Of a DNA stretch of 64,000 bases, positions 2-60,444 are shown piece after piece. The stretch is from a virus. Below the pieces are notes generated by a model that had not been told where the DNA came from, searched no databases, and saw nothing but the letters and a program-made list of their open reading frames with translations. The number at the start of each line of letters is the position of its first letter. Position 1 is the first letter of the stretch. Location: the UHGV virus genome UHGV-0363627. One strand, written 5' to 3'. Made by a program: the position numbers and the translations under genes.

Positions 2-3000
2 GCATTAGATGATGCTGCAACAGCTTTAGGTATTACTACTGAAGGTAAAAATATAAATGATTTAGCAAATGCCATTTATCGTAAATATAATGAAAAAGGA
101 TATATAACAAGAGTTTATAACGATGTAGGATTTCCTATTATTGATAGAGAACTAAATGTAAAACGATTTAGTGATGAAATGACAGAAGAAGAAAAGAAGA
201 TACATGACTTTATGGTTCTTCTACAATTTAATAAACTAAATCAATTAGGTAATATTGTTAATAATACTCTTAGTGTATTGACAGCAGATAAATTTGGTGC
301 TAAACCTAGTTATTATGCTACAGATAGAATATTTAGACAAATAGATGATATATTAGCAAGTGATGATAAATTATATACTGAAAATAAAAAAGGTGAAATA
401 ATTCCAGTGGTTGAAGCTATTTATCCTGGTATTAGTAAAGGTGTAGATAATTTTGCTAAAGCTGATATTAAAAATAGTAGTTATTCTTCTCTTGCTGCTA
501 TGTTGAAATATTCTTCTGTCACTGCATTAAAAGTCGGACAACAAGTATTTGAAACAGCAGAACCTAATTTTGTAGAACTTATATATAATATAGCTAAATA
601 TACAAAAAATGGAAAATTATCAGAGAAACTTTATAATGATTATAAGAAATATCTTGTTAAGAGATTATATGTAAATGATAATAATCCAGCTATTATATAT
701 CCTATTAGTCTAGATGATGATGGTAGTGTATTAATCAAGCAATCCTCTACGGGCAAGCTACATATAGATATTGAAAATGAAATGTCTAGAATTGCTGGTA
801 TTGGAAGTGAATATACTGAAAATACTAATTTTAAAATAGCTGATATTAATAATCCAACTAAAGAAGAAGTATTAGCTTTTGCTAAATTAAGTCCTGCTCA
901 AAAAGTTCTTTATATTAAAGAGAATTTTGATAATATAGGTATATTTGATTTTATAACAGTAAATAAGTTTAATGAATTTACTATTAAACAAAAAGGTTAT
1001 ATATCAAATGAACTTAAACTTAATCAAGGTAATTATACTAATGATTATTTATATGATTTATTTGATTTAGCTTATTTAAGTAGCAATCCAATTATTAGAT
1101 TGGCTGCAATAGACTTGGTAAAATATACTTATGTTGTAGAAGGAAATAATTTTAAAGCTGGTAATATTGCTCGTGCTATTTCTACTTTACCATTAAAACC
1201 TACTAATGTTGGTGGTATGAATATTGGATTTAGTACTAAACTTGCTTTTGATAATTATAGATTTATTGCTCCAACTACAAATGTTTCAGAAAAATTAATT
1301 ATTGGTTTTATTCGTCAAAATTATGATGATTTTCCTGCTAGATTTGTAGATGTAGATAAAATTATAAAGAAAAATGTAAATCATGCTCAAGATATTGAAT
1401 TTAATAATGATGGTTCGATAACTGTTTATACACATGGTATAGCTAATACAAAAGATTTTAATAAATTAGGATTATTGAATAAAGATGAGGCTTATGAAAT
1501 AATAAAAATTAGACATGGTAATACAGCAAAATTATATTATGGAATTAATCATATAGAAAATGTTACATATTATCCATTAAATAAACTTGATGAAATTGAT
1601 ACTAATAAAACAATAGAAGATAGTTCAGTTGCTCGCAACAACGTATATAAATCTTTATTCGATGTTGTATATGGATATAGAAGCGAAAAACTTGCTGAAC
1701 AATATGCTTTATATAAAGATAAATTTGTTAATGCTACAGAAATAACTATAGATGAAACAAATAATATAAGTGAAGTATTAGCTATAGCAAATCATAATTT
1801 CTTTAATAAGTCACAATTAATTCTTCGTAATACTGGATTTACAGGAGATAAATTAATAATAAATAATGCTATAAATGGTAAGAAATATGCTGCTACAAAA
1901 ATTACAGAAGAAGTAGCTAATAGACTTAGAGGAAATACTAGTAATCTTTATCAAGATTATATTGATTTTCTTGATAAATATCCTAATTATAAACCAGAAA
2001 GTGATTACGGTATCTTGCCCGTAGTGGAATATGGCAAAAGATATAGTAGCATTGGAGAACGTGATGCAGCTAGTTTTGCTATTAAACAAACTGTTGCTAT
2101 TGCTAGACAAGAAAGTTTTGGCGGTAATAAATTAGCTGAAAGTATGATGAAAATACTTAATAATGCTAATATCAATTATAAAGATACAAAAGAAATTGCC
2201 AACAATCTTCCTGTTGCTTCTTCGACTGTTGCTAAATTTGTAAAAGCTACTGCTGATAGATTGATATATGATGCTTATCATTTTACTATTGATGAGAATG
2301 GTAATGAATTGAAATTAAATGATGCTAGAGTTATAGAAAGAGTGTTGAAAGATGATAATCTTGAACGTAAGTTTATTACTCTTATTAATACAATCACATC
2401 ATTTAAAGATAGATATTCATTTAGTAATATTAATGTTGAAGGTTATGATGAAGATACAAAAGAAGCGTTAGAAACAATAAAAGAAGCTATTAATAAATTA
2501 AATAATGATACTATTGTGCTTCAAGCTAAAAGAAGTTATTGGAGAGAATTTATTAATAGTAGTACTACTAATCCTAATATTAAATCTGGATTGCAAGATG
2601 CTCTTACATTTTATGGAGATACAGGATTTTTTGATTTGAATATACAAGATATTGCATTTAATCATAATCAATTAGTTCAAGCTGTTGTTGGTGAAAGTCA
2701 AGCTATTATTAAAGAAGGAGAGTTTAGAGGTAAAATTGAAGCTCAACAATTTACTAAAATGCTTTCTGATTTAAAAGCTGAAGCTGCTAAAAATGGTAAA
2801 TCTATTGATTGGAATAAAATTGTTGATGAAAATGGTCGTCTTGTTCAGCCAAATAATAAAGAATGGTTTGAAATGAAAGACAAACTTAATAAAGAATATG
2901 TAAATGCTGTAGATGAAACAAAAGATAAATTTAGTGTTAAAGCATTAAGAGCTAAATTAGAATATGATGCATTTATAGCTGCAACTACAGAGTCACAATT

Positions 3001-6000
3001 TATTCCTATTAAAGATTATGATTATAACGGAGAAGAAGTTACTGTTGATTATACAAGAGAAACTATTACTAATCAATATGCTGTATTATATAATAAAAAC
3101 CCAAAAGTTGCTGAATTGTATGCTGAATATAAAAGATTGATGAAAGAACAATCTGATATATTAAGTAATATAATTGGTAATACTCCAACAGAAGAACAAG
3201 ATGAAAAGATACATCAAATATATCTTAAACTTCGTTTAATGACTTCTGACTTTGATGAAAATTATGAAATTAAAGATGATGAAGATTTGACTGCTGCTAG
3301 AACATTACAAGCATTTATTGATAGAAATAGATATTTAAAAGAATTGTTTTTTAATAGAAATATTAAAGTTGGTTTTGAAGAACAGCTTAATAATGCTTTA
3401 AAAACAATATCTGATATTGAAGGTGCTCGTGACCATGAAGGACGACTTCTTATTCCAATGAATATTCTTATGCAGAATAAAGAATATAGAAAAGCTAAAG
3501 CGTGGTTGAGAGCTAATGCAATGTATAAACCAGATGCTGATTTTATTAATGAAATTAATGCTTGTTTGACTGCATTAAATGACCCAACTATTGGTAAAAC
3601 TTCTGCTTTAAATATTGCTATTGAACAAGCAAACGCTCGTGATGAATTTGGTATTATTGATGGTAGAAAGTTTACTGCTGAACAAATAGAAAGAATTAAA
3701 AAAGAAACAGTTCGCAATTTCCATTTTAGTAAAAGAAGTGGTTTGCCTTATGCTGGTATATTAAGAAGTCAAGATGATGATGTTGTTATTTATAAATATG
3801 ATTTCTATGATAGTTTGCGAAATGATAAAGTTAAGTCAGAAGATGAAATAGAAGATATAGAAGCAATTAATAAAATTCTTGATAAAGTTTGGGATAGTAC
3901 AGCTAGAGTGCTTAATACAGGTAGCGATAAACTTACTATAGATGATTTGAATAAATTGTCTAAGTTGTTGGAATTATACGGCCTTGATAAAACTAAAAAT
4001 AAAAAGGCTGCTGAATTTATTGCTGAAGAATGTGTTGTTGATTATAATAATGCAGCTTATGAAGCGGATAAAGCAAGAGCATATAAAAACGGTGATGAAT
4101 GGTATCAAGCATGGAAGAAAGTATTTGAAACTGTAGATGATGATGGTAATGTTGTTCCTAATACAATATTCTATGGTGTTCTTAAACCTAAAGATGAAAG
4201 TAAATGGATTGACAAAAATAAAACTGATTATATAAGATTGATTAATAAACACGTTCAAAATACTAAAACTCAATATTACTATGAAGTTATGAGAACTAAT
4301 AGAGATAATATGAGTAAAGAAGAATTTAAAAAATGGTATTTTGATAATCATTATTATAATCCTTATAGTCGTCAATATGAACCATTGAAAATATGGACAC
4401 ATACTGAATATATAGATGAAAGTGGTAATAAAGCTAAAGGTAAATGGGAAGCTAGAATTAATCAGACAGATTTAGAGCCTAATAAAGATTATGTTAATGA
4501 GAAGTATGATAAGAATTATCCAACTTATAAAGAAGGTAGTACATATAAGGCTAAGCAAGAAGATGGAACTCGTAAAGAAGTAAGTTATGATAATTCTAAT
4601 TATAAATCATTAAATGAATATGAACTGAAACTGTTGAACAATTTAAAGAAGATAATGATGCAATATGCTTTTACTGATAGTAATAAATATTATGTAAAAC
4701 AAGGTTATCTTCCTTCTATTAGTAAAGAAAAAGAATTTGATTATAAAGATATATTTAAAGAAGCTATGGCATTTATTGGTGTTAGTTCTAATATTCCTAC
4801 TGATACTAAATGGCAAGATTTGGAGAATATAACTTATAATACTGATGAAGAAAAAGATAATCCAATGTTGCAAATGTTATTAGATAGAAATAGTTCTAAG
4901 TATGTTGAAGTTCCTCATTTTCCTAAACCTGGTGAAAGTGAAGCTGAATTTATTAAACGTAAACAAGAAGCTAAAGATGTTAATGCTAAGATAAGAGAAG
5001 AAAATGAAAAGATACATAATCAATTGATTAATAAAGATTGGGAAAATGTATTTAAATCGTTTATAATAAATAGTGCTAGATATGATGCTATTAGATTAAT
5101 TAAAGGTAAATTATATGCAGCCGATGATGCTTTATTAAGTTATGATGCTTATAAACTTAATTATAAGAATGAATTAATACAAGATTATAGATTAAGTGCA
5201 GAAAGTGAAGTTGAATATAAAACTGAAAGTAATCGTAATACATCTGCTCAATTAAGAAATTATATTCGTAGAGTTGTAAGAGATACTTATAAGAATAATA
5301 CAAATCCTCAGTTATTGAAGTTTGCTAGTATTGCTCAAAATATGGCTGGTAGTAAATATATGATGTTAAATATTACTGGTGGTATTGCAAATATTCTTAC
5401 AGGTCAGACTAACCTTGCAGCAGAAAGATTTGCTAGAGAATACTTTAATGAGAAAGATTGGATAATTGGTCAAAATCTTTATGTTGGTGGTGCTATTAGT
5501 TATATGTCTAATATGTATAATGATAAATCTACTACATTACAAGATGGTATTATAAAACTAGCAAATGTTGTTGATTATGATAGAATAGCAGAATTGACAG
5601 CTAATGATATAAAAGGTAATATAAAGAAATTAAGAGGTTTATTATTTACTCCACAAACTGCTGGTGAACATTATATGCAAAATACTGTTCTTCTAACAAT
5701 GATGAAAAATCATCATATAATTAAAGATGCTAATGGTAATGCTAAAATAGTATCGTTTGAAATGTTTAAACGAGAAAAAGAACTAGAAGCATTAATGATT
5801 GTATTGAATGAAGAAGAACGTGCTGCTTATGATAAATTCTTTAATGATATTCTTGCTGATGAAAATAGACGTGCTAATTATAATATGTTTAATGATAATG
5901 TCATAACAGATTTTATTAGAACACATCTTACAAAAGAAAGAATGGTTGAATTTGTAAGAAAACGTAAAGAGTTAATGAAAGAAGCAAAGAAGAAGTTTGA

Positions 6001-6943: not shown

Positions 6944-6954
6944 TATCTCGCTGA

Positions 6955-6973
6955 AACTTGCCCGTAGGGAATG
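6955..6973 (+). repeat. Motif copy AACTTGCCCGTAGGGAATG, 12 nt after the giant-ORF stop
   Basis: Consensus match. Gives rise to spurious ORF 6958..7209 (MPVGN...). Confidence 0.8.
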
Positions 6974-7077
6974 ACATGGTAATAATCATGCTGCTCCTTA
7001 TGGGCATTTTCGTATTAATACACTTGATAGAATTATTGTTAATATTGAAGATGGAGCAATTGCAAAAAATAAAGGCG

Positions 7078-8422: not shown

Positions 8423-8728
8423 AACAATATTATTTAGTGATTAATAAAATTTGCATGGTCTTGATGACTACTCAAATATAACATTATAAATCAGACTACG
8501 CAAGTACGTACCAACCAAAACTATGCAAAATTGATATAATTGCCTGATAATCAGCTATTTACAGCTCCTTAATAATATTATTATATATAATAAAATATTG
8601 ATGTTCCAGCATATCATAAATAAAACCGCTACTACTTTCACAAGCAATAGCGGCAACAAATTTAATACTTAAATCAACAACAGTATCTTTAATATCTTTC
8701 ATTTTTTCAATATCAATTAGATTATTTT

Positions 8729-8748
8729 AGCTCGCCCGTAGAGGAATG
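8729..8748 (+). repeat. Motif copy AGCTCGCCCGTAGAGGAATG; left arm of motif-pair hairpin A
   Basis: Pairs with inverted copy at 8779-8794 (31-nt spacer). Confidence 0.8.
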
Positions 8749-8778
8749 CTAGGCATGATAGCTAGCTTAATCATCACT

Positions 8779-8794
8779 TTCCTACGGGCAAGCT
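8779..8794 (-). repeat. Motif copy (R) TTCCTACGGGCAAGCT; right arm of hairpin A
   Basis: Inverted relative to 8729-8748. Confidence 0.75.
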
Positions 8795-8859
8795 GTAATA
8801 TCAACAATAACTAAATCGTCAATATAAATAATAACTAAATTATAACATTTACTAGCAGT

Positions 8860-8878
8860 AGCTCCCCCGTAGGGAATG
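8860..8878 (+). repeat. Motif copy AGCTCCCCCGTAGGGAATG; left arm of hairpin B
   Basis: Pairs with 8894-8911 (15-nt spacer). Confidence 0.8.
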
Positions 8879-8893
8879 CTAGCATTACATCAT

Positions 8894-8911
8894 ATCCTCT
8901 ACGGGCAAGCT
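8894..8911 (-). repeat. Motif copy (R) ATCCTCTACGGGCAAGCT; right arm of hairpin B
   Basis: Inverted relative to 8860-8878. Confidence 0.8.
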
Positions 8912-8949
8912 ATATTATCTATTACATCTTTTTCATTTTTACCTCCTTT

Positions 8950-14055: not shown

Positions 14056-14469
14056 TTAAAAATTCGACAAATCTAAATTAATATCATTACGAAGAAAATC
14101 AAAATCTTTTGGATGCATATAATTAATTTTATCCAATGCTTCAACATTATCAAAATAATTTTCAAGAGCATTATCATTTATAAATATATAACTACCAAAT
14201 CTAATTGTATCTTCTTCTTCAAATGTTTTAATAAACAACGTAGCTATTTCTAGCTTTGCTTTACATTCTGGACAAACTACACCATTAATAGTATTAATTT
14301 CTTTTGAGCAATCTCTGTTCATTGTATTAAAGAAAGGTGTATAAAACATCGGTTTCTTACATATATAACAAACAGTAGGTGCAGCATTAACACCATAATC
14401 AGGATGATTTTTAAGTACATTGTAGCTTGCCCGTAGGGAATGCCTACCATTATAACTACAATACTTCAT
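14056..14469 (-). CDS. Zn-finger hypothetical protein (137 aa). The N-terminus carries one copy of the dispersed motif, coding HSLRASY.
   Basis: CYICKKP ... CPECK. Motif copy at 14424-14442. Confidence 0.45.
   Translation of the reverse strand: MKYCSYNGRHSLRASYNVLKNHPDYGVNAAPTVCYICKKPMFYTPFFNTMNRDCSKEINTINGVVCPECKAKLEIATLFIKTFEEEDTIRFGSYIFINDNALENYFDNVEALDKINYMHPKDFDFLRNDINLDLSNF
14424..14442 (+). repeat. Motif copy AGCTTGCCCGTAGGGAATG in CDS 14056..14469. Lies between a 7-bp inverted repeat ATTGTAG/CTACAAT (14419-14425 / 14456-14462).
   Basis: Exact consensus. Confidence 0.85.
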
Positions 14470-15460: not shown

Positions 15461-15892
15461 TCATCGTATTTTATAAATAATACAATCAGGATTTTCTCTT
15501 TCTTGAACTAATTTTACATCTATATTAGTATCTTGTGTTATATCATAAAATATATCTTTAGTATAAATTTTATATCCACCTGTATAATCTCTAACTAACG
15601 GAATAGCATTATTAACTTTATCTTTATAAAGACAAACATAATAACTTCGTTCATTAGTTTCAGCATCATATTTATGTAATATCTGATATGATTTAGCTTT
15701 ATAATCAGTAAATATAATTATACTTTGAAAGAATACTGAATAATAACTTTTATTTCTATCAAATACTTTATTAGATATAACTTCAAATTCAAGATTAATA
15801 TCTCCTGTTATCTTCTGTGTAGGTTTAGCCGTCTTGACATTCCCTACGGGCAAGCTACGTTTTACAAAATTAAATCTTACATTTTTTACCAT
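15461..15892 (-). CDS. hypothetical protein (143 aa); motif copy near the N-terminus codes SLPVGN
   Basis: ORF. Motif at 15838-15858. Confidence 0.4.
   Translation of the reverse strand: MVKNVRFNFVKRSLPVGNVKTAKPTQKITGDINLEFEVISNKVFDRNKSYYSVFFQSIIIFTDYKAKSYQILHKYDAETNERSYYVCLYKDKVNNAIPLVRDYTGGYKIYTKDIFYDITQDTNIDVKLVQERENPDCIIYKIR
15838..15858 (-). repeat. Motif copy (R) CATTCCCTACGGGCAAGCTAC in CDS 15461..15892
   Basis: Exact consensus. Confidence 0.85.
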
Positions 15893-17999: not shown

Positions 18000-19131
18000 C
18001 TTCTTGTATATAATTTATTACATTTTTAAATAAATTGTCAATAACTTGTATAGAGTAATTTTGTCTTAATTCAGCAAAATCTTTACATTCATATTCTTTA
18101 GGAATAAGTATAGGAGTAATATTGAATTCCTTCTTTAAATATATAGCTTCTTTTTTACCAGTCATATCATTATCCATAAGACTGATAATATTATATCTAT
18201 CTTTTATATTATTAAGAAGATATTCATATTCTCTATCTTTTAATTTATAACTTTCACATGGAATATTAATTAAGCCTATTGTAGCTTGCCCGTAGAGGAA
18301 TGATGACATAGTAGTCTTGTTTAAATAGCTTTTTAAAGCAAGCCTATCTTTAGTAGATTTAGTTATAACTATATAATCATATTTATCATTTGTATTAAAA
18401 TTAAGAACGCCTTCAATATGATTACAATTAGTAATAAATCTAACATCACCTTTCTTACGATTAGGAAAATAAAGTTTAATATTATATATTCCATGTTTAT
18501 CTTGTCCTAATATATAACCATAACATAAATCTTTTTTATTATGATAATATTTAGGTTCAGGATTAATATTACGATTAATATAAAATTGGTCAATAGGATA
18601 AACAAAATTAGTATTAAGCAGACTAATATCTATATCAAATTGTTTCCAATAATTTATATCATAATCTTCCCAATTACGAATTACAAGTTCTATAACATTT
18701 TTTCTATTACGAATATTATTAATACCTATATTTATTTCATTATCTAAATTTTCATCCTTTTCTGTTCCATAAAAAATATCTTTAAAAGTTCTCATTATAT
18801 GTTTAAGAACTTTCATAAAATCATTTTTATTATTTATATCAATATGTGTATTATACGCATTACTTATTACATAAGCGGCAACATCAAAACAATCACCCCA
18901 AAACATTTCATTACCAAAATCTCTAAACTTTAATTTGTTTTTATTATTGTAACGAAAACCAGCAGAAGGATGAATATCTACTCGTAAAGGATTGCTTATT
19001 AAAGTTCCATTATTAATACAATCTTTTATAATATCTTCTGATATATTTAAATATTTGCTGAATATCTTAATTTGACTAACTTTAGAGAGTACATAATCTT
19101 TACTTATTGTACCATTATTTATGTTTCTCAT
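17944..19131 (-). CDS. DnaG-like (TOPRIM) DNA primase
   Basis: TOPRIM-like acidic cluster SLMDNDMTGKKEA. Located in the replication block. Contains a motif copy (SFLYGQAT). Confidence 0.45.
   Translation of the reverse strand: MRNINNGTISKDYVLSKVSQIKIFSKYLNISEDIIKDCINNGTLISNPLRVDIHPSAGFRYNNKNKLKFRDFGNEMFWGDCFDVAAYVISNAYNTHIDINNKNDFMKVLKHIMRTFKDIFYGTEKDENLDNEINIGINNIRNRKNVIELVIRNWEDYDINYWKQFDIDISLLNTNFVYPIDQFYINRNINPEPKYYHNKKDLCYGYILGQDKHGIYNIKLYFPNRKKGDVRFITNCNHIEGVLNFNTNDKYDYIVITKSTKDRLALKSYLNKTTMSSFLYGQATIGLINIPCESYKLKDREYEYLLNNIKDRYNIISLMDNDMTGKKEAIYLKKEFNITPILIPKEYECKDFAELRQNYSIQVIDNLFKNVINYIQEDENIEIDWNTEESNTLPF
18283..18302 (+). repeat. Motif copy AGCTTGCCCGTAGAGGAATG in primase CDS. Flanked by ATTGTAG...ATAGTAG, 30 nt apart.
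   Basis: Exact consensus (A-insert subtype). Confidence 0.85.
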
Positions 19132-31225: not shown

Positions 31226-31230
31226 ACAAA

Positions 31231-31250
31231 ATCTCCCCCGTAGAGGAATG
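31231..31250 (+). repeat. Motif copy ATCTCCCCCGTAGAGGAATG, intergenic, adjacent to terminator 31185-31225
   Basis: CTCCCCC variant, as at 8860. Confidence 0.75.
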
Positions 31251-31255
31251 TTAGA

Positions 31256-33848: not shown

Positions 33849-34076
33849 CTATAGCCATAAATCAATATATTTAATAATACCACTTATAGTAGCAAAAATT
33901 ACAACAACGCTAATAACAAATGTTATAATATCAAATAGCTTAACACCTCGACCATATCGAATATCAGATACAATACAACATATAACAAATACACTTATAA
34001 TAAGCATAACTAGAATAGCAACAATAAGTGCACTTAATACAAAGAGATTTATTATATAAGTCATATTATTTGGCAT
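33849..34076 (-). CDS. small membrane protein (75 aa, two TM helices)
   Basis: Hydrophobic stretches LFVLSALIVAILVMLIISVFVICCIV and ITFVISVVVIFATISGII. Confidence 0.45.
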   Translation of the reverse strand: MPNNMTYIINLFVLSALIVAILVMLIISVFVICCIVSDIRYGRGVKLFDIITFVISVVVIFATISGIIKYIDLWL

Positions 34077-34393
34077 TAATCCTCTACGGGCAAGCTACGA
34101 TTGACTTCTTTAGCAACAAATTCATCTAATAAAGCAGCAGTTCTATTACTAAATTCATCAAAAGCAGCAGTAAAACATTCAAGAAATTGTTTATTACTAT
34201 AACGATATTCTCGTTTAAGTCCATCTTTAATAATAATAAATCTATCTGCCAATAGAGATACATTTGCATCTTCACCAAAACATCTTTTCAGATATTCAAT
34301 AGTAACACCTCTAACATTAGCATTATTTCTAACAACATTAGACAAAGCTAATACATGAGCTGGAGTTTCAGGTTTTTCTTTTTTCTGTTTCAT
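34076..34393 (-). CDS. hypothetical protein (105 aa). The C-terminus is formed by a motif copy (…SLPVED-stop).
   Basis: ORF. Motif at 34079-34096 supplies the last 6 codons. Confidence 0.45.
   Translation of the reverse strand: MKQKKEKPETPAHVLALSNVVRNNANVRGVTIEYLKRCFGEDANVSLLADRFIIIKDGLKREYRYSNKQFLECFTAAFDEFSNRTAALLDEFVAKEVNRSLPVED
34079..34096 (-). repeat. Motif copy (R) ATCCTCTACGGGCAAGCT forming the last codons of CDS 34076..34393
   Basis: Exact consensus. Confidence 0.85.
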
Positions 34394-38252: not shown

Positions 38253-38789
38253 ATCATACATAGCTTCATTTTTATAACTATAAATTCTAAATTCAACTAT
38301 AAATTCCACTACAAACTCTACTACATTTTCATCATTCAAATCATTATAATTTTTACTTTATTCTTCACCTGCTTTATTACTTGAATTATTTTTAATATCC
38401 TTATCATAATCACCTATTATATAAGAGGATGTTCAATCACTTTTAGAAGGAGGTGAACTATATATAGCCTCACCTTCACAACTATAAACTCAATATAATT
38501 TATTACTTCATCTCTAGTCTTATCTTTATTTCTTTAATTTTTATACCTATTTTTATTATCTCTGTTTCATCATCTTCATTATTTTACTTTATAATTTTTA
38601 TCATCTTTATTTTCTATCATCTTTATTTTCTATTATATTATTTTCTTATTTCTTATTTCATTCTTTTTTATTATCTATAAATATAGGGGAGGGGGCTGTT
38701 CAATCATCATCTTTAATAGAGGGTTTATTATATTCACCTTCTCTTTTATATTTATCTTTATTATTTGCTATCTCTTTGTTGTTTATTGT

Positions 38790-38806
38790 ATCTTGCCCGT
38801 AGAGGA
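38790..38806 (+). repeat. Motif copy ATCTTGCCCGTAGAGGA in the divergent switch region. Loop of a perfect 8-bp hairpin TATTGTAT/ATACAATA (38784-38791 / 38811-38818).
   Basis: Consensus core. Confidence 0.8.
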
Positions 38807-38869
38807 TATTATACAATATCTACAACTTCATCTTCTATTATATCTTCTGTTATATTAGCTGTAAACCTG

Positions 38870-39234: not shown

Positions 39235-39773
39235 AATTATTGATTATGTTGAAAATTAAGAGTGACTTAAAGAATTACGGAATTGTAGTTCCTACTAGTA
39301 TTAATGAAATTAATGCTGATTATTTTGAAAAATTATTGAAAGATGTAGAAGTTGCTGAACACTATTCTATTGTAGCTATTTGCTATAAAGATAAATTGTT
39401 TAATTGTGCAATGAGTGTTAAAACTGATTCTAATATTAAAGTTGATATTACTCCAATTATTGCTAAATCTAATAAATATAAAACTTGTGATAGACCTATA
39501 ATGGATAGTTTGTCTATTGAAAGAGGAACACATTTTTATATTCCAAATAATATTAATAGTTTTGCTTCTGTTGGTAAATATTGTGCAGATGATAAAGACC
39601 TTTATATGTCTATTATGAATGGTTCTTATTTTAAGAAAAGTAATGAAACAAATATTGAAGCTAAGAATAATGCTCCTGATTGTTATTTTATAGAATATAA
39701 AGTTATTCCTAACTGTGATATTAAAGCTGTATATTCTAAAGATGCTAAATTTGAGAGTATTATGAAGTTCTAA
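39219..39773 (+). CDS. hypothetical protein (184 aa)
   Basis: ORF. A motif copy sits immediately after the stop. Confidence 0.45.
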   Translation: MYNQIKLLIMLKIKSDLKNYGIVVPTSINEINADYFEKLLKDVEVAEHYSIVAICYKDKLFNCAMSVKTDSNIKVDITPIIAKSNKYKTCDRPIMDSLSIERGTHFYIPNNINSFASVGKYCADDKDLYMSIMNGSYFKKSNETNIEAKNNAPDCYFIEYKVIPNCDIKAVYSKDAKFESIMKF

Positions 39774-39774
39774 C

Positions 39775-39792
39775 ATTCCCTACGGGCAAGCT
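39775..39792 (-). repeat. Motif copy (R) ATTCCCTACGGGCAAGCT immediately after the stop of CDS 39219..39773
   Basis: Exact consensus. Confidence 0.85.
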
Positions 39793-39805
39793 ATAATTAG
39801 ATAAT

Positions 39806-41935: not shown

Positions 41936-42267
41936 TGAATAAAGATTTATATGTTGCGATAGCTACTATTGTCGGTATAGTTATTATTATACTTGCTACT
42001 ATATTTAATAGCAAACCTGTTCCTGAAATTCGTTATATTCCCTACGGGCAAGATACAACGAGTTTAAAAGAACTTGTTCTTACTAAAGAACTTCTTAGAC
42101 GAACTCAAGATAGTCTTAATGCTTATAAATGTGATACAACTATTTCAGCTGAACTTTTTGTTGCTAAATATAAATTAGAAAGAATTAGATATTATAATAA
42201 CATTGCAGCCAAAGGAAACAACATTCGTTTTTTGAGGGGCTGGATAAACAGAGTTTTAAATGAATGA
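41935..42267 (+). CDS. hypothetical protein with N-terminal TM helix (110 aa); contains a motif copy (IPYGQD)
   Basis: ORF. Motif at 42037-42054. Confidence 0.4.
   Translation: MNKDLYVAIATIVGIVIIILATIFNSKPVPEIRYIPYGQDTTSLKELVLTKELLRRTQDSLNAYKCDTTISAELFVAKYKLERIRYYNNIAAKGNNIRFLRGWINRVLNE
42037..42054 (-). repeat. Motif copy (R) ATTCCCTACGGGCAAGAT in CDS 41935..42267. Imperfect inverted flank TCGTTATA / TACAACGA.
   Basis: One mismatch (AGAT). Confidence 0.8.
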
Positions 42268-43477: not shown

Positions 43478-43808
43478 TGATAGTATTCCATTCCCTACGG
43501 GCAAGCTACAACAAGATAGTATTAATGTTGGTATTAATGAAATACGAGCAAGTAATAGAGTATTTATTAAATATAAATTTAAAAATAATATTATAGCTTT
43601 AAAAGATAGTATTATTCATCTACAAAATAAAAAAATAGATGTTTATAAAGATGCTTATGATAAAATGAAAGATGCTGCTATAGCAACTGAAAGAATAAAT
43701 CAACAATTACAACGTGATGTTGATAAATACAAAAAGAGAAATGTTATATATGGCGGAGTTGCTGGTGGATTAGCGACTTCGCTTTTATTGTTTATATTAA
43801 TTAAATAA
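43398..43808 (+). CDS. spanin-like protein. It has an N-terminal signal/TM with Cys22, a coiled-coil and a C-terminal TM, which is u-spanin-like architecture. It contains a 36-nt motif insertion (PFPTGKLQQDSI).
   Basis: N-terminal hydrophobic LIVLIMIVQLFYLDSYC. C-terminal VIYGGVAGGLATSLLLFILI. Overlaps the preceding ORF as embedded lysis genes often do. Confidence 0.35.
   Translation: MKSIKLIVLIMIVQLFYLDSYCKSWSNDSIPFPTGKLQQDSINVGINEIRASNRVFIKYKFKNNIIALKDSIIHLQNKKIDVYKDAYDKMKDAAIATERINQQLQRDVDKYKKRNVIYGGVAGGLATSLLLFILIK
43490..43507 (-). repeat. Motif copy (R) ATTCCCTACGGGCAAGCT in the spanin-like CDS. Perfect 9-bp direct repeat GATAGTATT at 43479-43487 and 43515-43523 (36-nt unit).
   Basis: Exact consensus. 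Confidence 0.9.
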
Positions 43809-46163: not shown

Positions 46164-48542
46164 ATGGATGTTATAGGATATAAACAAAATGTAGATTTTC
46201 CTCAACAGAAAGTTTCTGCTGCTGAAAAAGCTAAACCTGAATGGTATGCTAATTGTTGTGATTATGTTATATCTTCTGGACTTAATTGTATTGATACAAA
46301 AGATATAGAAGATAAATATAATTTTTTAAAAGAAAATATATCAGAAAATGATTATAAAAAGATATTAAATCCTTATAATGTTAAAGAAGAAAAGTATAAA
46401 AGATTTCCAGCAACAATGAGAAATTATGATATTACTAGTGGTATCATAAGAAGATATGTTGGAGAATATATACAAAATGCTCATGATTTTATTGTTAGTG
46501 CTAATAATCCCGAAGTTGTATTGGCAAGAAATGTAAAGTTAAATCAAGAATTGACAATGCTTGTGCAACAACAAATAGCACAGAGAATACAACAAGAGTT
46601 GCAATCATTTATACAACAAGGTGGCAATCCAGAAGAATTTAATCCTCAACAAGCTATAGATATTGATAAATTTATAGAAGATTTTAATGAGAATTATATT
46701 GATGATATATCAGCACAAGGACAAGCCATATTAGATGTTATAGATGATTTGACAGATAGTGTTGCTTTATATGCTAGAGCATATTTTGAATGGGTTACAT
46801 TTGGTAGCTTTTATACATATACAGAAGTAAAAGGAAATACAATTCATAAACGAGTTGTTTCAAATAGAGATGCTTTTCCTACTCCAAATGATAATCAATT
46901 AGTTGAAGATTTTGATATGTTTGCTGAAAGACGAAAGATGTCATTACAGCAGATAATGGACGAATATTCAGAAGATTTATCAGATAAAGAAAAAGAATAT
47001 CTTGTATCATATTATAAAAACGGTAATCGTGGTGGAGAATATGATAATACATGGTATTGGAATAATTATAAGAAAACATTCCCTGATATATGTAAGAAGT
47101 TTAATGATACTGAAATTAAACAAGTTCCTATAATGACTAGAGATTTAAATCAAGGTCTTATAGATGTTTGGAAAACTGTTTGGAAAGGAGAAGTTAAAAA
47201 AGGCATTCTTACTTATCAAAATAATGGTTTAATTACAACCAGAATTGTTGATGAAACTTATAAGTTAAATAAAGCTATTGGAGATATTTCTATTGAATGG
47301 TATTGGGATACACAAGTTTATGAATGTGATAGAATTGGAGGTAGACATAATTCAATTTATCCTTTTAAAGCTAGACCAATAGATTATAATAGAAATGGTA
47401 AACTTCCTTATAATGGTTTAATGGAACTTCTTCCTGGTTATGGTAAATTTAGTATTATTGATATTATTAAGCCATATCAGATATTTGGAAATATTGTTGC
47501 TTATCATAGAGAAATGGCTATTGCTAAAAACAAACTTAATGTTCTTATGATAGCTAAGTCGTTATTAGGTACTAAACCTGATGATACAATTTATAAGATG
47601 GCGGCAGATGGAGTTCTTTATATAGATGATGAAGATGACCAAGGGATGTTAAAAGCTCAACAAGTAAGAATGCTTGAAACTAGACAAAATGATTATATTA
47701 CTCAATTAGGACAACTGTTACAAGAGAATGAACAGATGGCTATGATGAAAGTAGATATGACACCTCAACGATATGGTGCTATTGCTAATAGTGCTGGTAA
47801 AGGTGTTACAGAAGAAGCTGTCATTCGTGGTAGCATGGGTAGTGTTATCGTTGAGTTTATGTTTGATTGGGCTAGGGAACATGACTATGCTAGAGATTTA
47901 GATTATACTAAACTTGCATGGATAGATGGTCTTAATACATCATATAAAGATAAGAATACAGGAAGTATTAAATATTTAAGTCTTGATGTTAATTCTCATA
48001 TTTATGCGGATTATGTAATTAAAGCAAAGTTGTCTGTTAAAGAAAGAGAGAAATTAAATCAATATAAACAATTTGCTTTTAGTGCTGCTCAAAATGGAGA
48101 TATGAGTATGGCTGTTGCTGCTATTGAAGGTGATAATTGTGCTGAGATTAAACGTCTTATAGATAGATTACAAGATGCAAAAACTAAGCATGAAGAAACA
48201 ATGAAACAAATGGAACAGCAGATGGAACAAATGAAACAACAGAATGAACTAGCAAAGATACAAGCTAAAGGAGAACAAGATAGAGAAACTTTAGCGTTAG
48301 AGAAGTATCTTGATAGTGAAATAGAGAGTTTGAAAGCTATGCTTAGTTCTGATGATGCTTCATTCCCTACGGGCAAGCTAGATGAAATAAAAGAATCTAT
48401 TGAAAGAGAAAAGCTAAATATTGAGAGAGAAAAAAATAGAACTGAAGCTGCTCTTAAAAATAGAGAAATTAATGCTAAAATTCTTGATAGTAATAATAAA
48501 CTTAAAATTGCTAAGACTAATAAAAATAGACATGATAAATAA
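46164..48542 (+). CDS. portal protein
   Basis: 792 aa between TerL and scaffold/MCP. Acidic coiled-coil C-terminus. Contains a motif copy (SFPTGKL). Confidence 0.55.
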   Translation: MDVIGYKQNVDFPQQKVSAAEKAKPEWYANCCDYVISSGLNCIDTKDIEDKYNFLKENISENDYKKILNPYNVKEEKYKRFPATMRNYDITSGIIRRYVGEYIQNAHDFIVSANNPEVVLARNVKLNQELTMLVQQQIAQRIQQELQSFIQQGGNPEEFNPQQAIDIDKFIEDFNENYIDDISAQGQAILDVIDDLTDSVALYARAYFEWVTFGSFYTYTEVKGNTIHKRVVSNRDAFPTPNDNQLVEDFDMFAERRKMSLQQIMDEYSEDLSDKEKEYLVSYYKNGNRGGEYDNTWYWNNYKKTFPDICKKFNDTEIKQVPIMTRDLNQGLIDVWKTVWKGEVKKGILTYQNNGLITTRIVDETYKLNKAIGDISIEWYWDTQVYECDRIGGRHNSIYPFKARPIDYNRNGKLPYNGLMELLPGYGKFSIIDIIKPYQIFGNIVAYHREMAIAKNKLNVLMIAKSLLGTKPDDTIYKMAADGVLYIDDEDDQGMLKAQQVRMLETRQNDYITQLGQLLQENEQMAMMKVDMTPQRYGAIANSAGKGVTEEAVIRGSMGSVIVEFMFDWAREHDYARDLDYTKLAWIDGLNTSYKDKNTGSIKYLSLDVNSHIYADYVIKAKLSVKEREKLNQYKQFAFSAAQNGDMSMAVAAIEGDNCAEIKRLIDRLQDAKTKHEETMKQMEQQMEQMKQQNELAKIQAKGEQDRETLALEKYLDSEIESLKAMLSSDDASFPTGKLDEIKESIEREKLNIEREKNRTEAALKNREINAKILDSNNKLKIAKTNKNRHDK
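48362..48379 (-). repeat. Motif copy (R) ATTCCCTACGGGCAAGCT in the portal CDS (SFPTGKL)
   Basis: Exact consensus. Confidence 0.85.
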
Positions 48543-53430: not shown

Positions 53431-54315
53431 ATGAGACGATTTATTTTAGCTGATAAAACAGCAATGGCTAATTATCCTACTACTATTCCTTTGACTGCTG
53501 GACAAGTTGCATTTGCTGCTTTTAAAGATGATGGTGCTGGAACAGATGATGGTGCTGGAACAGATGACACAGGTTTAGTACTTGATACTGACGGTACTAA
53601 AATTAAAAAAGAAGGAGTTATTCTTTATCACGATGGACAGAAGATGTGGAATATTCCTATTTATAAGAATAGCTTTAGTTATGTGAAAAGTGGTTATGCT
53701 GCTGGTACTGCATTTAATTGTGATGTAACAATCCCTGCTCCTACAGCTGGTTTGACTTATACTATGATTCTTGTTAAGAAAGGCATGCCTTTTAATCATA
53801 GAAATAAATGGACAGGAACTTATTTAGCAAAAGATGGTGATACGGCTAATACAGTTGCAGCTTATTTGAGAAAATATTTTTCAGCTAATGCTGCCGAACT
53901 TGATATTAAGGTAACAGGTTCTGCAAGTCAGGTTATTATTACAGGTAATGATAAACGACAAGATTATGAAATTGTATTTGCTGATGATTTAGCTGGAACT
54001 GCTCAGACACCTACTCATGCTATTGCTCCAACTAATGATGCTAAAGCTATTCAGGAAATGTGGTTGCAAGCTGCTGGAGATATGGGATATACAGATACAT
54101 TTGATGATTTTATTTATCGTGGTCATTATCCTCTCAATCCTCTACGGGCAAGCAATACAGCTGATACAGGCTTTATTGTTTATACTCTTCAGTTTGCTGA
54201 ACCTAGAACTACAAGAACTGTAGATACTGCCATTAATCAAATTGTTCAAATTGCTTTACCGACAAGTACTTTAACAACTGAAATCGACGCTGTACTTACT
54301 GCTCTTGCCAAATAA
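53431..54315 (+). CDS. hypothetical structural protein (294 aa) with internal 18-nt tandem repeat (DDGAGT x2.3) and a motif copy (NPLRASN)
   Basis: ORF. Tandem repeat 53526-53567. Confidence 0.4.
   Translation: MRRFILADKTAMANYPTTIPLTAGQVAFAAFKDDGAGTDDGAGTDDTGLVLDTDGTKIKKEGVILYHDGQKMWNIPIYKNSFSYVKSGYAAGTAFNCDVTIPAPTAGLTYTMILVKKGMPFNHRNKWTGTYLAKDGDTANTVAAYLRKYFSANAAELDIKVTGSASQVIITGNDKRQDYEIVFADDLAGTAQTPTHAIAPTNDAKAIQEMWLQAAGDMGYTDTFDDFIYRGHYPLNPLRASNTADTGFIVYTLQFAEPRTTRTVDTAINQIVQIALPTSTLTTEIDAVLTALAK
53526..53567 (+). repeat. 18-nt tandem repeat (GATGATGGTGCTGGAACA x2.3) inside CDS 53431..54315, encoding DDGAGT repeats
   Basis: Direct tandem copies. Confidence 0.8.
54137..54153 (-). repeat. 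Motif copy (R) ATCCTCTACGGGCAAGC in CDS 53431..54315 (PLRASN). CAAT...CAAT flanks.
   Basis: Consensus minus the final T. Confidence 0.75.
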
Positions 54316-55243: not shown

Positions 55244-58211
55244 ATATTCTTATTTAAAAATACCACTTGATTATGTTTGTATTTATAACAAACTTGCATA
55301 TTGTTTATATGCTTATGGTATAGATATAATTAAAGATTGCTCTGCTTCTTGTAAAACAAATAATAAAACTATTATTGAACTTTGGAATTTGTTTCAATTA
55401 GCTGTTGTTTGTTTTGAAAAGAATGAAATTGATAAAGCTGATTATTTTATTGATTATATAAAATCCAATCTTGATAAAATATATAATTCTATTAAAATAC
55501 CTAATTATAAAGGAGCAAATAATTATTATATTGATGAAGAAGGCAATAAACATACTTGTATAGTTTGTAATGGTTGGATATATGAAACTCCAAATCTTGT
55601 TACAACTTATGAATTTGTAATATCTGGTGGAACAACTATTGAAGATAATGGTAAAGGACAAACAATAAATATTCAAATAACATCTACAAAAACTATATCA
55701 GATGGAAATGATGTTCAAACAGAAGATGTACCATTTGATATAAGATATAATAATGTAGATGATGCTAATTGGATAGTATATAATTATAATGATAAAACTT
55801 TAACCATTAAACCTAATTCTTCTGAACCTAGAACAGGTAATATTTATTTTGAACAAAATGAAAGTAATAAACGAATAGATATTACTATTAATCAAGCTAA
55901 AGATGCTACTGAATATGAATATTATTTTGAATATGAACCTGATTCTTTTGTTTTTGAAAAAGAAGGTGGAGAAATTCAATTTAATGTTACAAAAAGTAGT
56001 AAAAGAGAATTAGCAGAAGGCTTGCCCGTAGGAGAAGAAATACCTGTTGAATGGAACGCAAAGATTGATGGATATGGATTTAGTTATAATACATTTACAA
56101 ATAAAGTTGTAGCTGAAGCTAATGATTATAAAGCACGTACAGGTAAACTTATTATTAATCGACCTGAATTGGGTACATCAAAAGATATTGAAATATCTAT
56201 TACACAAAAAGCTGGCGAACTAAATATTATATATAGTTTACAAGCAATTGCTAATACTAATATTGTTCCTGCTTTAAACGGTAAAGTAATAATAACGGTT
56301 TTATCTACAAAACAAGGTTATTATGGTAGTGAACCTATTGGTGACCCTGAACAAGTGCCATTTACTATTACTTCTGCTAGAGGATTTTTAAGCGGTGTTA
56401 ATGAAAACGGTGCTGTTTGGAATATGACAGAAAATATATCTGAAACAACACGAGAAGATACATTAATTGTTACACAAAATAATGCTGAGGGTAAAGAAGT
56501 AAGAATTAAAATTATCCAACAACCAGCTGTAGTTGATTATATTTATGCTTTTAACACTGATGCAGATACTATACGTATAGAAGCCACTGGGGGTAATAAA
56601 ACATTAAATGTTATATCAACGAAACAGAAAACTGTTAACGGAAAGCCTTACGGTGATGCTATTCAAATTAATTATAATTCTTCAATTACAGAAGGGTTTT
56701 CTATTAATAAAAATGTTGTAAATACTACAGAAAACCAAAATGAAGAAGAAAAACGAGGAACTGCAACATTTGTACAAGATGAAAGTAAAAAACAATTTAC
56801 TGTAACTATTATACAAAATGCTGCTACTGAGTCTTATGTATATACATTTTCAGTAGCAGAAGGAACTAATAAAGTTAGTTTTCCATATAGTGCCAGTCAA
56901 AAAACATTTAATATAACATCTGAAAAACAGAAATTATTAAACGGTAGTCCTTCAGGCGGTAAAGTACAAGTTGGTTTTAAAACTATTATACAAGGTGATG
57001 GTTATAGTGTTGGAGCAACAACAGAAAAAACAACAGAAATTAAAGTTAGTGAAAATAAAACAACTAATATAAGAATTGGTAGCGTAAGGTTTATTCAAAA
57101 TGAAAGTAATAAAGAATTACCTATTAGTTTAGAACAAGCTGCTGGAACATCTGAATGGAGATATAGTCTTGAAGTAACTGAAAGTAAGATAAATGTTCCT
57201 AATTATGAAAGCAGTGGAATTAGAAGAAATTTTACAATACAAAGCTATAGAAAATTATATATAAATGATGTTTATCAAGACCAACAAGCTAATGTGCCTT
57301 ATAATGTTTCATCTAATCAATCATGGTGTCAAGTAAATAATAATTCTACACAAATATCTGTTGATGAAAATTTAAGTTACATGCGAACAGCTATTGTTAC
57401 AATTACACAAACAGAAACAAATAATAATAAAAATATTGATATTAATCAAGAAGGTTCTAGTACAAAATATGAACAAAAAATAACTGCTCCTGATTTTTAT
57501 TTTCAACACGGTGAAAGTGTAAAAGTAGAAACTGCTGTTGCTGAATCATATCATTTAATAAATGGGCATATAATTCAAAATAAATCTGAACATAAAATAA
57601 TAGGAATTACAAGAAATGATTCAAATGGATATTATGATTTTGTTTATGATAAACTTAATATAACATGTACTATTACTAGATTCACAGAATCATTTAAGTC
57701 TAGCTATAGAATGAAAACTTCAATTGGTAATGCAGATGGTCGTGTTCTGTATATTAATCCGTCAGTTCTTGTTAATAATATAAATATAAAAGAAATATCA
57801 CTTTCTGATATTTATCTTCTTATTAAAGAAAATTATATTACAACTTATCAAAAACTTATAACCCTTATAATTAATAATAATAAAGCAATAAAAGAAAAGC
57901 CTGATAATGTTGTTAATAAACAAATTATTGATTGTTGGAATTTATTTCAATCCGCTGTTGCTGCTTATAATTTAGGATTTGAAAAAGATGCTGATTTCTT
58001 TATAAGTTTTATAAATTGTAATATAGATAATATAATTAATAAATATGGAGAAATATATAATGAAACTTTCTATTTCGAACACCCTGATATGATTGGAATA
58101 AGAGGAACAGAAATAACAATAGATGATATTGATTTTTATGTTAATGATGAAGATGGTAATATTTATCAAAAAGTAAATAAAGATGAAACCGATAATAAGA
58201 AAATTAGGTAA
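55236..58211 (+). CDS. tail/fibre protein with BACON-like repeat domains and homologous N- and C-terminal modules (991 aa)
   Basis: Repeated about 90-aa units ending in ...RTGNIYFEQNESNKRIDITINQA / RTGKLIINRPELG...ISITQKA / RGTATFVQDESKKQFTVTIIQNAA / IGSVRFIQNESNKELPISLEQAAG, typical of BACON domains known from crAssphage. N-terminal ELWNLFQLAVVCFEKNEIDKADYFIDYIKSNLDKIYN is repeated as DCWNLFQSAVAAYNLGFEKDADFFISFINCNIDNIINKYG near the C-terminus. Confidence 0.55.
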   Translation: MNKYSYLKIPLDYVCIYNKLAYCLYAYGIDIIKDCSASCKTNNKTIIELWNLFQLAVVCFEKNEIDKADYFIDYIKSNLDKIYNSIKIPNYKGANNYYIDEEGNKHTCIVCNGWIYETPNLVTTYEFVISGGTTIEDNGKGQTINIQITSTKTISDGNDVQTEDVPFDIRYNNVDDANWIVYNYNDKTLTIKPNSSEPRTGNIYFEQNESNKRIDITINQAKDATEYEYYFEYEPDSFVFEKEGGEIQFNVTKSSKRELAEGLPVGEEIPVEWNAKIDGYGFSYNTFTNKVVAEANDYKARTGKLIINRPELGTSKDIEISITQKAGELNIIYSLQAIANTNIVPALNGKVIITVLSTKQGYYGSEPIGDPEQVPFTITSARGFLSGVNENGAVWNMTENISETTREDTLIVTQNNAEGKEVRIKIIQQPAVVDYIYAFNTDADTIRIEATGGNKTLNVISTKQKTVNGKPYGDAIQINYNSSITEGFSINKNVVNTTENQNEEEKRGTATFVQDESKKQFTVTIIQNAATESYVYTFSVAEGTNKVSFPYSASQKTFNITSEKQKLLNGSPSGGKVQVGFKTIIQGDGYSVGATTEKTTEIKVSENKTTNIRIGSVRFIQNESNKELPISLEQAAGTSEWRYSLEVTESKINVPNYESSGIRRNFTIQSYRKLYINDVYQDQQANVPYNVSSNQSWCQVNNNSTQISVDENLSYMRTAIVTITQTETNNNKNIDINQEGSSTKYEQKITAPDFYFQHGESVKVETAVAESYHLINGHIIQNKSEHKIIGITRNDSNGYYDFVYDKLNITCTITRFTESFKSSYRMKTSIGNADGRVLYINPSVLVNNINIKEISLSDIYLLIKENYITTYQKLITLIINNNKAIKEKPDNVVNKQIIDCWNLFQSAVAAYNLGFEKDADFFISFINCNIDNIINKYGEIYNETFYFEHPDMIGIRGTEITIDDIDFYVNDEDGNIYQKVNKDETDNKKIR
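56020..56033 (+). repeat. Degenerate motif copy GCTTGCCCGTAGGA in the BACON protein CDS (GLPVGE)
   Basis: Core CTTGCCCGTAGG retained, 3' end diverged. Confidence 0.5.
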
Positions 58212-59837: not shown

Positions 59838-60071
59838 ATGATTACAAGAAATCATTTACTTTATGCAATTATAGCGATAGCTGTAGCTGCATTGTTTGGT
59901 ATTACATTAAGTATGACAATAGAATGTATGATACCTGTTAGTTTTGTTGCTATTTGTTGTGCTGCTTATGAAGGTATACACAATAATAAAACTTATTGGA
60001 AATCAATAGTAGATGGTGCTGTTCCAGCTATTCTTGGTGGTTTATTAATTTGGTTGTGTTTTGCTTTATGA
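59838..60071 (+). CDS. small membrane protein (77 aa)
   Basis: Two TM helices. Confidence 0.35.
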   Translation: MITRNHLLYAIIAIAVAALFGITLSMTIECMIPVSFVAICCAAYEGIHNNKTYWKSIVDGAVPAILGGLLIWLCFAL

Positions 60072-60400: not shown

Positions 60401-60425
60401 GTAAAAGTGTAATGATAAGTCATGT

Positions 60426-60444
60426 ATTCCTCTACGGGCAAGCT
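60426..60444 (-). repeat. Motif copy (R) ATTCCTCTACGGGCAAGCT forming the 24-nt loop of a perfect 13-bp hairpin (AATGATAAGTCAT 60411-60423 / ATGACTTATCATT 60448-60460), intergenic
   Basis: Exact consensus. Confidence 0.9.

Follow-up and report, generated by a model that had tools for sequence, protein, structure and literature searches.

Why does an AT-rich phage genome carry the same GC-rich word over and over, on both strands, inside genes as well as between them? The question is raised by the virus genome UHGV-0363627, of which we analysed a stretch of 64,000 nucleotides (nt), referred to here as the window. The window belongs to a crAss-like phage of the subfamily Crudevirinae and has a GC content of 27%; the word that recurs in it is CTTGCCCGTAG. 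We find that this motif is subfamily-wide, exists in lineage-specific dialects, is evenly spaced and alternates between the strands, all of which goes beyond the first-pass annotation of this DNA. In our judgement the copies very likely constitute a selected, strand-specific recognition signal and not a mobile element.

With at most one mismatch allowed, the motif matches 23 times on the two strands of the 64-kilobase (kb) window, against 0.07 matches expected from dinucleotide shuffles, and none of 100 shuffles reached 23 copies. Two further copies, at 8862 and 31233, have decayed to two mismatches and bring the total to 25 (Table 1), in agreement with the first-pass count of at least 25 copies, 23 good and 2 decayed, at an effectively zero chance expectation; a third match with two mismatches, at 43542, is spurious. 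The division into two subtypes also holds, with 9 copies of GTAGGGAAT and 13 of GTAGAGGA, next to three odd copies (2014, 8782 and 56021). Copies do lie both inside and between genes as described: 16 fall within 14 open reading frames (ORFs), and the other 9 are in non-coding DNA or at the edges of genes. Translation of these ORFs bears out what had been said of the reading frames. Sense copies use a single frame, always (S/G/I)LPV(E/G/V), and antisense copies use three (SSTGKL/FPTGKL, IPYGQD/FLYGQA and PLRASN/HSLRASY). The restriction arises because the forward strand of the motif contains TAG in two of three frames, whereas no frame of the reverse strand has a stop codon, and the same stop-codon asymmetry accounts for much of a mild antisense excess inside genes. 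The motif continues beyond the window: a contig with 98% identity, IMGVR_3300045988_110116 (contig 110116), has 27 copies in its recovered 70 kb.

Besides contig 110116 (IMG/VR 3300045988_110116), three other contigs are 90–93% identical to the window. Among annotated genomes the best relatives are those of cr110_1 (Delmidovirus) and p-crAssphage (Carjivirus), with about 75% nucleotide identity over structural genes. Multiple copies of the exact 14-mer occur in crAss-like contigs alone, including lineages with about 68% nucleotide identity to the window. Unbiased k-mer counts in other genomes, an enrichment check that the first-pass annotation had proposed, recovered related words. Every Crudevirinae genome examined, about 70 IMG/VR contigs included, has about 30 copies of a word with the centre CCC(C/T)GTA(G/A)AGGA. 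The words are GAGACCCCCCGTAGAGGA in cr110_1 (28 copies), TAGAC(C/T)CCCCGT(A/G)GAGGATGGA in p-crAssphage (31 copies), GTTCCCCCGTA(G/A)AGGAA in cr3_1 (Diorhovirus; 31 copies) and TGTAAACTCCCCTGTA(A/G)AGGAG in the cultured phage Rudgehvirus jaberico (30 copies); the short cores are CCCGTAGAGG and CCCTGTARAGG. Among 80 loci fetched around primase homologues, many of them from one sample, there are at least 12 dialects, all of which share CCC(C/T)GTA(G/A)AGG, and loci whose primase is only 28–34% identical have at most one chance-level match to the core. Each dialect carries 30–38 bits of information over about 18–22 positions, with flanks that are lineage-specific. IMG/VR sample 3300045988 contains dozens of distinct Crudevirinae contigs with at least 8 motif dialects, and dialect diversity therefore coexists within one community.

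Outside the subfamily, the Crudevirinae motif was not found in crAss001 (Steigviridae). This phage (MH675552, 1–100000) has a dispersed 9-mer of its own, CTTCTGGAG, in 27 exact copies on both strands against about 1.1 expected. The copies occur about once per 3.7 kb, their orientation alternates (runs test P = 0.004) and no two + copies are adjacent. A scan for the 18-mer across 185,579 prokaryotic species, each represented by a single genome, gave no Bacteroidales match, and on this ground a host-derived repeat was rejected. The same scan returned 19 single matches in unrelated taxa and one Deltaproteobacteria metagenome-assembled genome, MAG213 (JBLMZC01, about 35% GC). MAG213 has at least 7 copies of a repeat, AAACTTGTCCGTATAGCTTGCCCGTAGGGGAT, that contains the window 18-mer, is flanked by heptamer-like tandem repeats and shows a curious half-site duplication, CTTG(T/C)CCGTA; the match probably arose by chance within a family of repeats.

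Purifying selection acts on the motif at the nucleotide level. Among relatives at 90–98% identity, substitutions affect 0.4% of the 11-nt core and about 6% of the flanks, a roughly 15-fold difference, and together with synonymous changes between dialects this upholds the earlier view that nucleotides rather than protein sequence are conserved. No presence/absence polymorphism was seen at 101 sites compared in 5 genomes at 90–98% identity: all sites with a spanning orthologue were occupied, and the sole differences were point decay at 5 sites. Some sites are orthologous in up to five genomes, each with the dialect of its own lineage, including those in the SNF2 ATPase gene (sense) and in the genes for DNA polymerase B and primase and the gene upstream of terL (antisense). 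The SNF2 peptide Leu-Pro-Val-Glu-Glu coincides with AGC TTG CCC GTA GAG in two lineages and with ACA/TTA CTC CCC GTA GAG in two others; because the same peptide is encoded by different codons, the dialect difference is partly synonymous, through a TTG/CTC leucine switch.

Alignment to orthologues indicates that copies have been created mostly by point changes and not by insertion. Seven of nine alignable window-specific copies show no insertion or deletion (indel) and replace sequence of equal length in variable protein segments; the sites at 54134 and 30933, for example, have the same length as their orthologues in cr110_1 and p-crAssphage. Some new copies build on a pre-existing partial match, such as NPL at 54134 and YG in the Gam-like gene of cr110_1, and a minority coincide with short indels, such as 12 nt in the p-crAssphage RNA polymerase (RNAP) gene. 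Flanking inverted repeats are not in excess over a mismatched-flank control in 5 genomes, and there is no target duplication, terminal repeat or palindrome. Variable stems of 4–7 bp that seemed by eye to close the motif were rejected, as a cross-copy control pairing each upstream flank with the downstream flank of another copy gave equal values. Stability, the slow core, orthologous dialect sites and origin in place together reject an in-frame mobile element. To explain them, one needs either a reader evolving in step with about 30 sites or a process that homogenises the copies.

The arrangement of the copies is ordered. After close pairs were merged, the coefficient of variation (CV) of spacing was 0.46–0.57, compared with 0.87 for random placement, in all four Crudevirinae tested (P from 0.0003 to 0.03), and density is one site per 3.2–4.1 kb in every genome despite the different words, crAss001 included. 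Strand totals are roughly equal and alternating, and runs tests detect an excess of neighbours in opposite orientation in p-crAssphage (P = 0.019), cr3_1 (P = 0.005), Rudgehvirus (P = 0.047) and crAss001 (P = 0.004), with a combined z of 4.6, or 4.16 without copies that have a neighbour within 500 nt. Close pairs (500 nt or less) are inverted in 26 of 29 cases and direct in 3 (P = 8e-6). Spacing is even on each strand as well, judged against a null that permutes strand labels at fixed positions: the + strand of p-crAssphage has a CV of 0.31 (P < 0.0002), both strands of cr3_1 reach P ≤ 0.006 and the − strand of Rudgehvirus reaches P < 0.0002. Alternation combined with even per-strand spacing thus points to a strand-specific signal that is needed at regular intervals on each of the two strands. 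Over six genomes, 128 of 170 copies lie inside ORFs (about 60–90% per genome), and the 42 in non-coding DNA exceed the 12 expected 3.5-fold. Orientation is weakly biased with respect to transcription, with 73 antisense and 47 sense copies. As the first-pass annotation had argued, the copies are not accounted for by promoter or terminator strand logic, by a CRISPR array or by local iterons; of the candidates that it listed, a recognition site for a DNA-binding, nicking or modifying protein is the one that this evidence favours.

We propose that the genome carries an array of one cis-acting DNA signal that selection keeps in place and that would be read by a co-evolving, sequence-specific factor. 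A copy would be needed about every 5–7 kb per strand, giving two interleaved arrays with one copy per about 3.5 kb and with close pairs inverted, and copies would be sited where they cost least, in non-coding spacers and in tolerant, variable protein segments. Each copy may mark a start of DNA synthesis on its strand, by a primer from a sequence-specific primase or RNA polymerase or by a site-specific nick. Inverted pairs would then be bidirectional start sites, or origins, single copies would be starts of the complementary or lagging strand, and the GC-rich word could act as a stable primer or anchor in 27% GC DNA. The arrangement, in which one strand is read and both are covered, fits either the initiation of DNA synthesis or a Chi-like signal that controls a nuclease. 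We choose initiation because inverted pairs have the geometry of bidirectional starts, and because the p-crAssphage pair adjoins repL and the predicted origin while the window pairs likewise precede a RepL-like gene. The case that the motif marks sites of priming or nicking is circumstantial, and we advance it tentatively and with low confidence, below an even chance. From the same patterns we infer a trans-acting reader, its nature and its link to the initiation of DNA synthesis; the reader is probably phage-encoded.

The positions of the pairs can be given more exactly. Inverted pairs 1 and 2 of the window lie 300–480 nt upstream of the RepL-like gene 7706–8422, and the p-crAssphage pair 95746/95864 is directly upstream of repL, where Schmidtke et al. 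placed the predicted origin of that phage (PMC10983915). Inverted pairs precede one or two RepL-like paralogues in the window and in p-crAssphage. In the linear record of cr110_1 there is no motif within 2.5 kb of gp82, and a pair (107/259) falls upstream of gp82 only if the genome is circularised. The family itself has further members. The window encodes three RepL-like or ‘transcription regulator’ paralogues, at 7706–8422 (−), 35018–35590 (−) and 35891–36481 (−); others are gp43 and gp88 of p-crAssphage and gp42, gp80 and gp82 of cr110_1. A profile search with the family collected about 400 representatives, one of which matches Pfam RepL.

Several observations weigh against a role in the initiation of DNA synthesis. 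The Crudevirinae genomes share some orthologous sites, and their spacing and orientation statistics are not fully independent of one another; cr3_1 and crAss001, which are largely independent of the other genomes, give the strongest arrangement signals. RepL-like proteins were rejected as a universal reader, as cr3_1 has 31 motif copies and no member of the family detectable by tblastn or hidden Markov model, although the inverted pairs may still be linked to origins. No DNA-binding reader common to all carriers was found when 30 ORFs, small or of unknown function, were scanned against Pfam and PHROGs; the matches were only HNH/I-HmuI-like homing endonucleases, DUF932, a sub-threshold match to DUF6563 (ORF 33251–33700) and three uncharacterised PHROG families. 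The half-dialect AGCTTGCCC is common to the window and the 8348/22590 lineage, and in this weak test no replication-module protein had residues uniquely shared by the two, the primase having 0. Known primases read 3–5 nt, not about 20. Alternation and even spacing would suit a Chi-like signal as well, and the known nick motifs of phages lie on one strand only (PMC11780129). A nick, primer or replication start at the motif sites is proposed here from sequence patterns, and we rate it as plausible rather than probable.

How far do known systems help? The closest analogues each match in part and each fail on a defining feature. Nick-associated motifs (in T5, in phiKMV-like phages and, as WACTRTGAC, in Pseudomonas phages tf/Rembedalsseter) are likewise short, over-represented words of unknown function that are group-wide despite low nucleotide identity, and their density is similar, with 13 sites in a genome treated as about 45 kb, or about one per 3.5 kb (PMC11780129). 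They differ in lying on one strand and clustering in one part of the genome, whereas in the Crudevirinae the sites alternate between the two strands at even distances. The Crudevirinae word also has roughly double the length, and it is known here from sequence, whereas nicks were seen in those phages.

DNA uptake sequences (Neisseria DUS and Haemophilus USS) occur, like the motif, in both orientations, in permissive frames within genes and as inverted intergenic pairs, and they have lineage dialects, unusually even spacing and an origin by point mutation. They belong, however, to bacterial chromosomes and are read by competence machinery, whereas a phage genome has no uptake process and the word is not in the host genomes scanned. 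ColE2-type Rep primase/ori systems and the single-strand initiation signals of plasmids resemble the motif in having a long, asymmetric, strand-specific site with plasmid-specific ‘dialects’; they have one or few sites per replicon instead of about 30, and their dedicated initiator has only a putative counterpart here. We class the motif with the dispersed cis-acting recognition words of phage genomes, a kind already known. We did not find it described in the searchable literature (full text, with motif strings in both orientations and with crAss combined with motif, promoter, nick or repeat terms), and as far as the literature could be searched the new part is the strand-alternating, evenly spaced, dialect-rich architecture.

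The rival reading that survives best, which we nonetheless consider unlikely, is an operator-like array in which dispersed duplex sites bind a phage protein that acts chromosome-wide, as a silencer for a carrier or phage-plasmid state or in partition or compaction. Its model is the stoperators of Cluster A mycobacteriophages, the 13-bp sites of the L5 gp71 repressor, which belong to temperate phages with a known repressor and are oriented with transcription; stoperator/repressor pairs diversify in concert. Like the Crudevirinae motif, stoperators are asymmetric, dispersed sites, about 25–35 in number, that occupy intergenic and coding DNA and have a consensus that differs between lineages and co-evolves with its reader. 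High information content, dialects, about 30 sites per genome, the enrichment in non-coding DNA and the pairs in regulatory regions upstream of RepL-like genes all speak for such an array, as does the proposal that p-crAssphage lives as a phage-plasmid (PMC10983915). A duplex site, however, predicts neither even spacing per strand nor alternation between neighbours. Unlike that of stoperators, the orientation of the motif is only weakly tied to transcription, and ORF scans yielded no repressor candidate common to all carriers.

A Chi-like signal, read one-sidedly by a translocating helicase-nuclease of host or phage so that degradation turns to repair and phage DNA is marked as self, is a more doubtful reading. 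It accounts well for the arrangement: both orientations are needed, as ends can arise anywhere, and the strand specificity, the interleaved even spacing of each orientation and the density of one site per 3.3–4 kb are all as it would have them. Chi sites too are strand-specific and over-represented, occur about once per 4–5 kb and mark self DNA. The phages are annotated as encoding a Gam-like nuclease inhibitor, RecT, a PD-(D/E)XK exonuclease and a RecD-like SF1 helicase, and the crAss001 counterpart, at 9 nt, is Chi-sized. However, known Chi sites are 5–8 nt long, so that 30–38 bits is far above any of them, and they are skewed with the direction of replication rather than alternating. Chi is also read by a host enzyme, and that closely related phages of one sample differ in dialect argues against such a reader here. 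The 18-mer was not found in the Bacteroidales genomes scanned.

We give little credence to the view that the copies are promoters of the giant RNA polymerase of the phage, analogous to the 23-bp promoters of T7-like phages. In length, information content and lineage-specific specificity positions they resemble T7, T3 and SP6 promoters, but they follow no sense-strand logic, most strong copies being antisense to genes and many lying deep inside ORFs. The virion RNAP of crAss-like phages acts on single-stranded templates and has no known promoter; against this, early transcripts of phi14:2 lack a common upstream motif, and its middle and late promoters are host-type (bioRxiv 10.1101/2020.03.07.982082).

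Marginally less credible is an RNA-level element, also among the first-pass candidates, that would act as a signal for transcript processing, stability or termination, with inverted pairs as hairpins. Of 11 non-coding single copies, 10 lie 0–50 nt past the stop codon on their upstream side, but placement away from the next gene start would equally come from promoter exclusion. The four-copy cluster at 8715–8925 folds strongly (−78.8 kcal/mol, z = −7.4), but it is followed by a canonical intrinsic terminator at 8654–8625 (−), GCCGCTATTGCTTGTGAAAGTAGTAGCGGT and then a T-run. Both senses occur relative to local transcription, the 47 sense copies forming a minority of about 40% beside 73 antisense, and 128 of 170 copies are inside ORFs. 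Complementarity of the flanks equals the control, no Rfam match reaches the gathering score and no tRNA is present, and an element without common structure that is used in both orientations is disfavoured. A terminator role of the inverted pairs was rejected separately, as the canonical terminator lies just downstream of the cluster and most copies are single.

The weakest reading, a selfish in-frame miniature element homogenised by gene conversion, in the manner of Rickettsia palindromic elements or yeast mitochondrial GC clusters, would suit a GC-rich word in AT-rich DNA that sits in open frames of many genes, has flanks homogeneous within a genome and different between genomes, and in a few cases coincides with a short insertion, but those elements are palindromic insertions of 30–150 nt with presence/absence polymorphism, and sites that are fixed at 90–98% identity and orthologous across genera, new copies mostly without length change where the first-pass annotation had proposed to look for clean insertions, the lack of target duplications and terminal repeats, the roughly 15-fold slower core and the non-random spacing and orientation largely refute it and leave it very improbable.

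Table 1 Copies of the motif in the window, with their strand and gene context.
Copy	Position	Strand	Context
Copy GTAGCTTGCCCGTAGAGGATTGC	739..761	−	Antisense in giant RNAP-like ORF 179–6943; read KQSSTGKLH
Weaker copy GTATCTTGCCCGTAGTGGAATAT	2010..2032	+	Sense in giant ORF 179–6943 (GILPVVEY)
Non-coding copy	6953..6975	+	10 nt past stop codon of giant ORF
Copy with 1 mismatch	8727..8749	+	Left arm of inverted pair 1; 527-nt intergenic region upstream of RepL-like gene 7706–8422
Copy	8774..8796	−	Right arm of inverted pair 1
Decayed copy GTAGCTCCCCCGTAGGGAATGCT, 2 mismatches	8858..8880	+	Left arm of inverted pair 2
Copy	8891..8913	−	Right arm of inverted pair 2
Copy	14422..14444	+	Antisense, boundary of genes 14456–15358 and 14056–14469
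Copy	15836..15858	−	Sense, 5′ edge of ORF 15461–15892, directly after ligase gene
Copy	18281..18303	+	Antisense in DnaG-type primase gene; cr110_1 and p-crAssphage have orthologous copies
Copy	23684..23706	−	Sense in SNF2 ATPase gene (YSLPVEEI); orthologous in 5 of 5 genomes compared, own dialect each
Copy	25559..25581	+	Antisense in DNA polymerase B exon 1 (SNSSTGKLQ); orthologous in 5 of 5 genomes compared
Copy	30933..30955	−	Sense in ORF 30867–31157 (DSLPVEDR); arose in place; decaying in contig 110116
Decayed non-coding copy AAATCTCCCCCGTAGAGGAATGT	31229..31251	+	5 nt past stop of ORF 31256–31552
Copy	33483..33505	+	Antisense in ORF 33251–33700
Copy	33651..33673	+	Antisense near start of ORF 33251–33700; 168 nt from previous copy, the only close direct pair
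Copy	34076..34098	−	Sense; provides last codons and stop of ORF 34076–34393
Non-coding copy	38788..38810	+	Divergent region between replication and structural gene blocks
Copy	39772..39794	−	Fills 32-nt spacer from stop of ORF 39246–39773 to ATG at 39806
Copy	42034..42056	−	Antisense in peptidoglycan-binding membrane protein gene (YIPYGQDT); same site in cr110_1 has a 2-mismatch copy, own dialect
Copy	43487..43509	−	Antisense in gene upstream of terL; orthologous in cr110_1 and p-crAssphage
Copy	48359..48381	−	Antisense near 3′ end of portal gene
Copy	54134..54156	−	Antisense in tail-sheath-like gene (LNPLRASN); arose in place, length as in cr110_1 and p-crAssphage
Weaker copy	56017..56039	+	Sense in tail protein gene 55236–58211 (EGLPVGEE)
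Non-coding copy	60424..60446	−	24 nt past stop of ORF 60068–60400

Further features of the window were noted alongside the motif. The non-coding divergent region contains additional GC-rich snippets at 38210–38262 and 38684–38700. One of them, CATACGGGGGTATC, resembles the reversed C-rich dialect of cr110_1 and p-crAssphage, another, AGACCCGGGGGTCT, is a palindrome, and the third is GGGGAGGGGGC. Beyond them, at about 38880–38960, comes TA-rich DNA of low complexity, and this may be an origin or promoter region. At 25199–25518 some 320 nt of intervening sequence interrupt the gene for DNA polymerase B (exon 1, 26786–25518; exon 2, 25199–24168), and contig 110116 has about 750 nt extra at this site. 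The intervening sequence has no Rfam group I or II intron match at gathering score. A tie between the motif and this insert was judged coincidental, as the insert lies about 40 nt downstream of a copy and varies independently. Two lineage-specific ORFs resemble homing endonucleases: a 344-amino acid (aa) ORF with an I-HmuI NUMOD-like domain at 28779–29813 (−), which splits the SF1 helicase gene into pieces at 27790–28767 and 29965–30447, and a 213-aa ORF at 19133–19774 (−) with a weak HNH_3 match, between the primase and single-stranded DNA-binding protein (SSB) genes. The 89-aa ORF 62562–62831 (+) has no Pfam or PHROG match. Its sole homologue among the compared genomes, at 53% identity over 66 aa, is in contig 3300022590_000039, a member of the distant lineage with the AGCTTGCCC half-dialect; that lineage was incompletely covered, and the pattern may be an artefact.

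One of the Crudevirinae is the prototypical crAssphage, the virus that is most abundant in the human gut and whose replication, gene control and persistence are largely unknown. A maintained, alternating signal of about 30 copies points to a specific reader and to a genome-wide process so far undescribed for these phages, and it offers a concrete handle, with about 30 defined sites per genome and with cultured systems in Rudgehvirus jaberico on B. cellulosilyticus WH2 and, for the 9-mer, crAss001. Rudgehvirus Bc11 has been sequenced with the rapid kit of Oxford Nanopore Technologies (PRJNA737576; PMC10028833), and existing native long-read data together with cultured phages make the function of the motif directly testable. 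The dialects can be used as a simple sequence marker for lineage typing, and constraint at synonymous sites in DNA polymerase, primase, SNF2 and portal genes should be taken into account in phylogenetics and when marker assays for crAssphage are designed. The many dialects of one sample hint that specificity diversifies between competing phages. More speculatively, and with less confidence than we place in the initiation of synthesis, Crassvirales genomes could carry a ‘strand barcode’ of two interleaved strand-specific arrays of a lineage-specific word, evenly spaced and with about 15 copies per strand. A dedicated phage factor, evolving along with the word, would read it so that DNA synthesis is started or protected on phage DNA alone; the many dialects within one gut community would then serve compatibility or kin recognition between co-infecting crAss-like phages, and CTTCTGGAG of crAss001 would be the same system with a different word. 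If true, this would be a general trait, amenable to experiment, of the viruses that are most abundant in the human gut.

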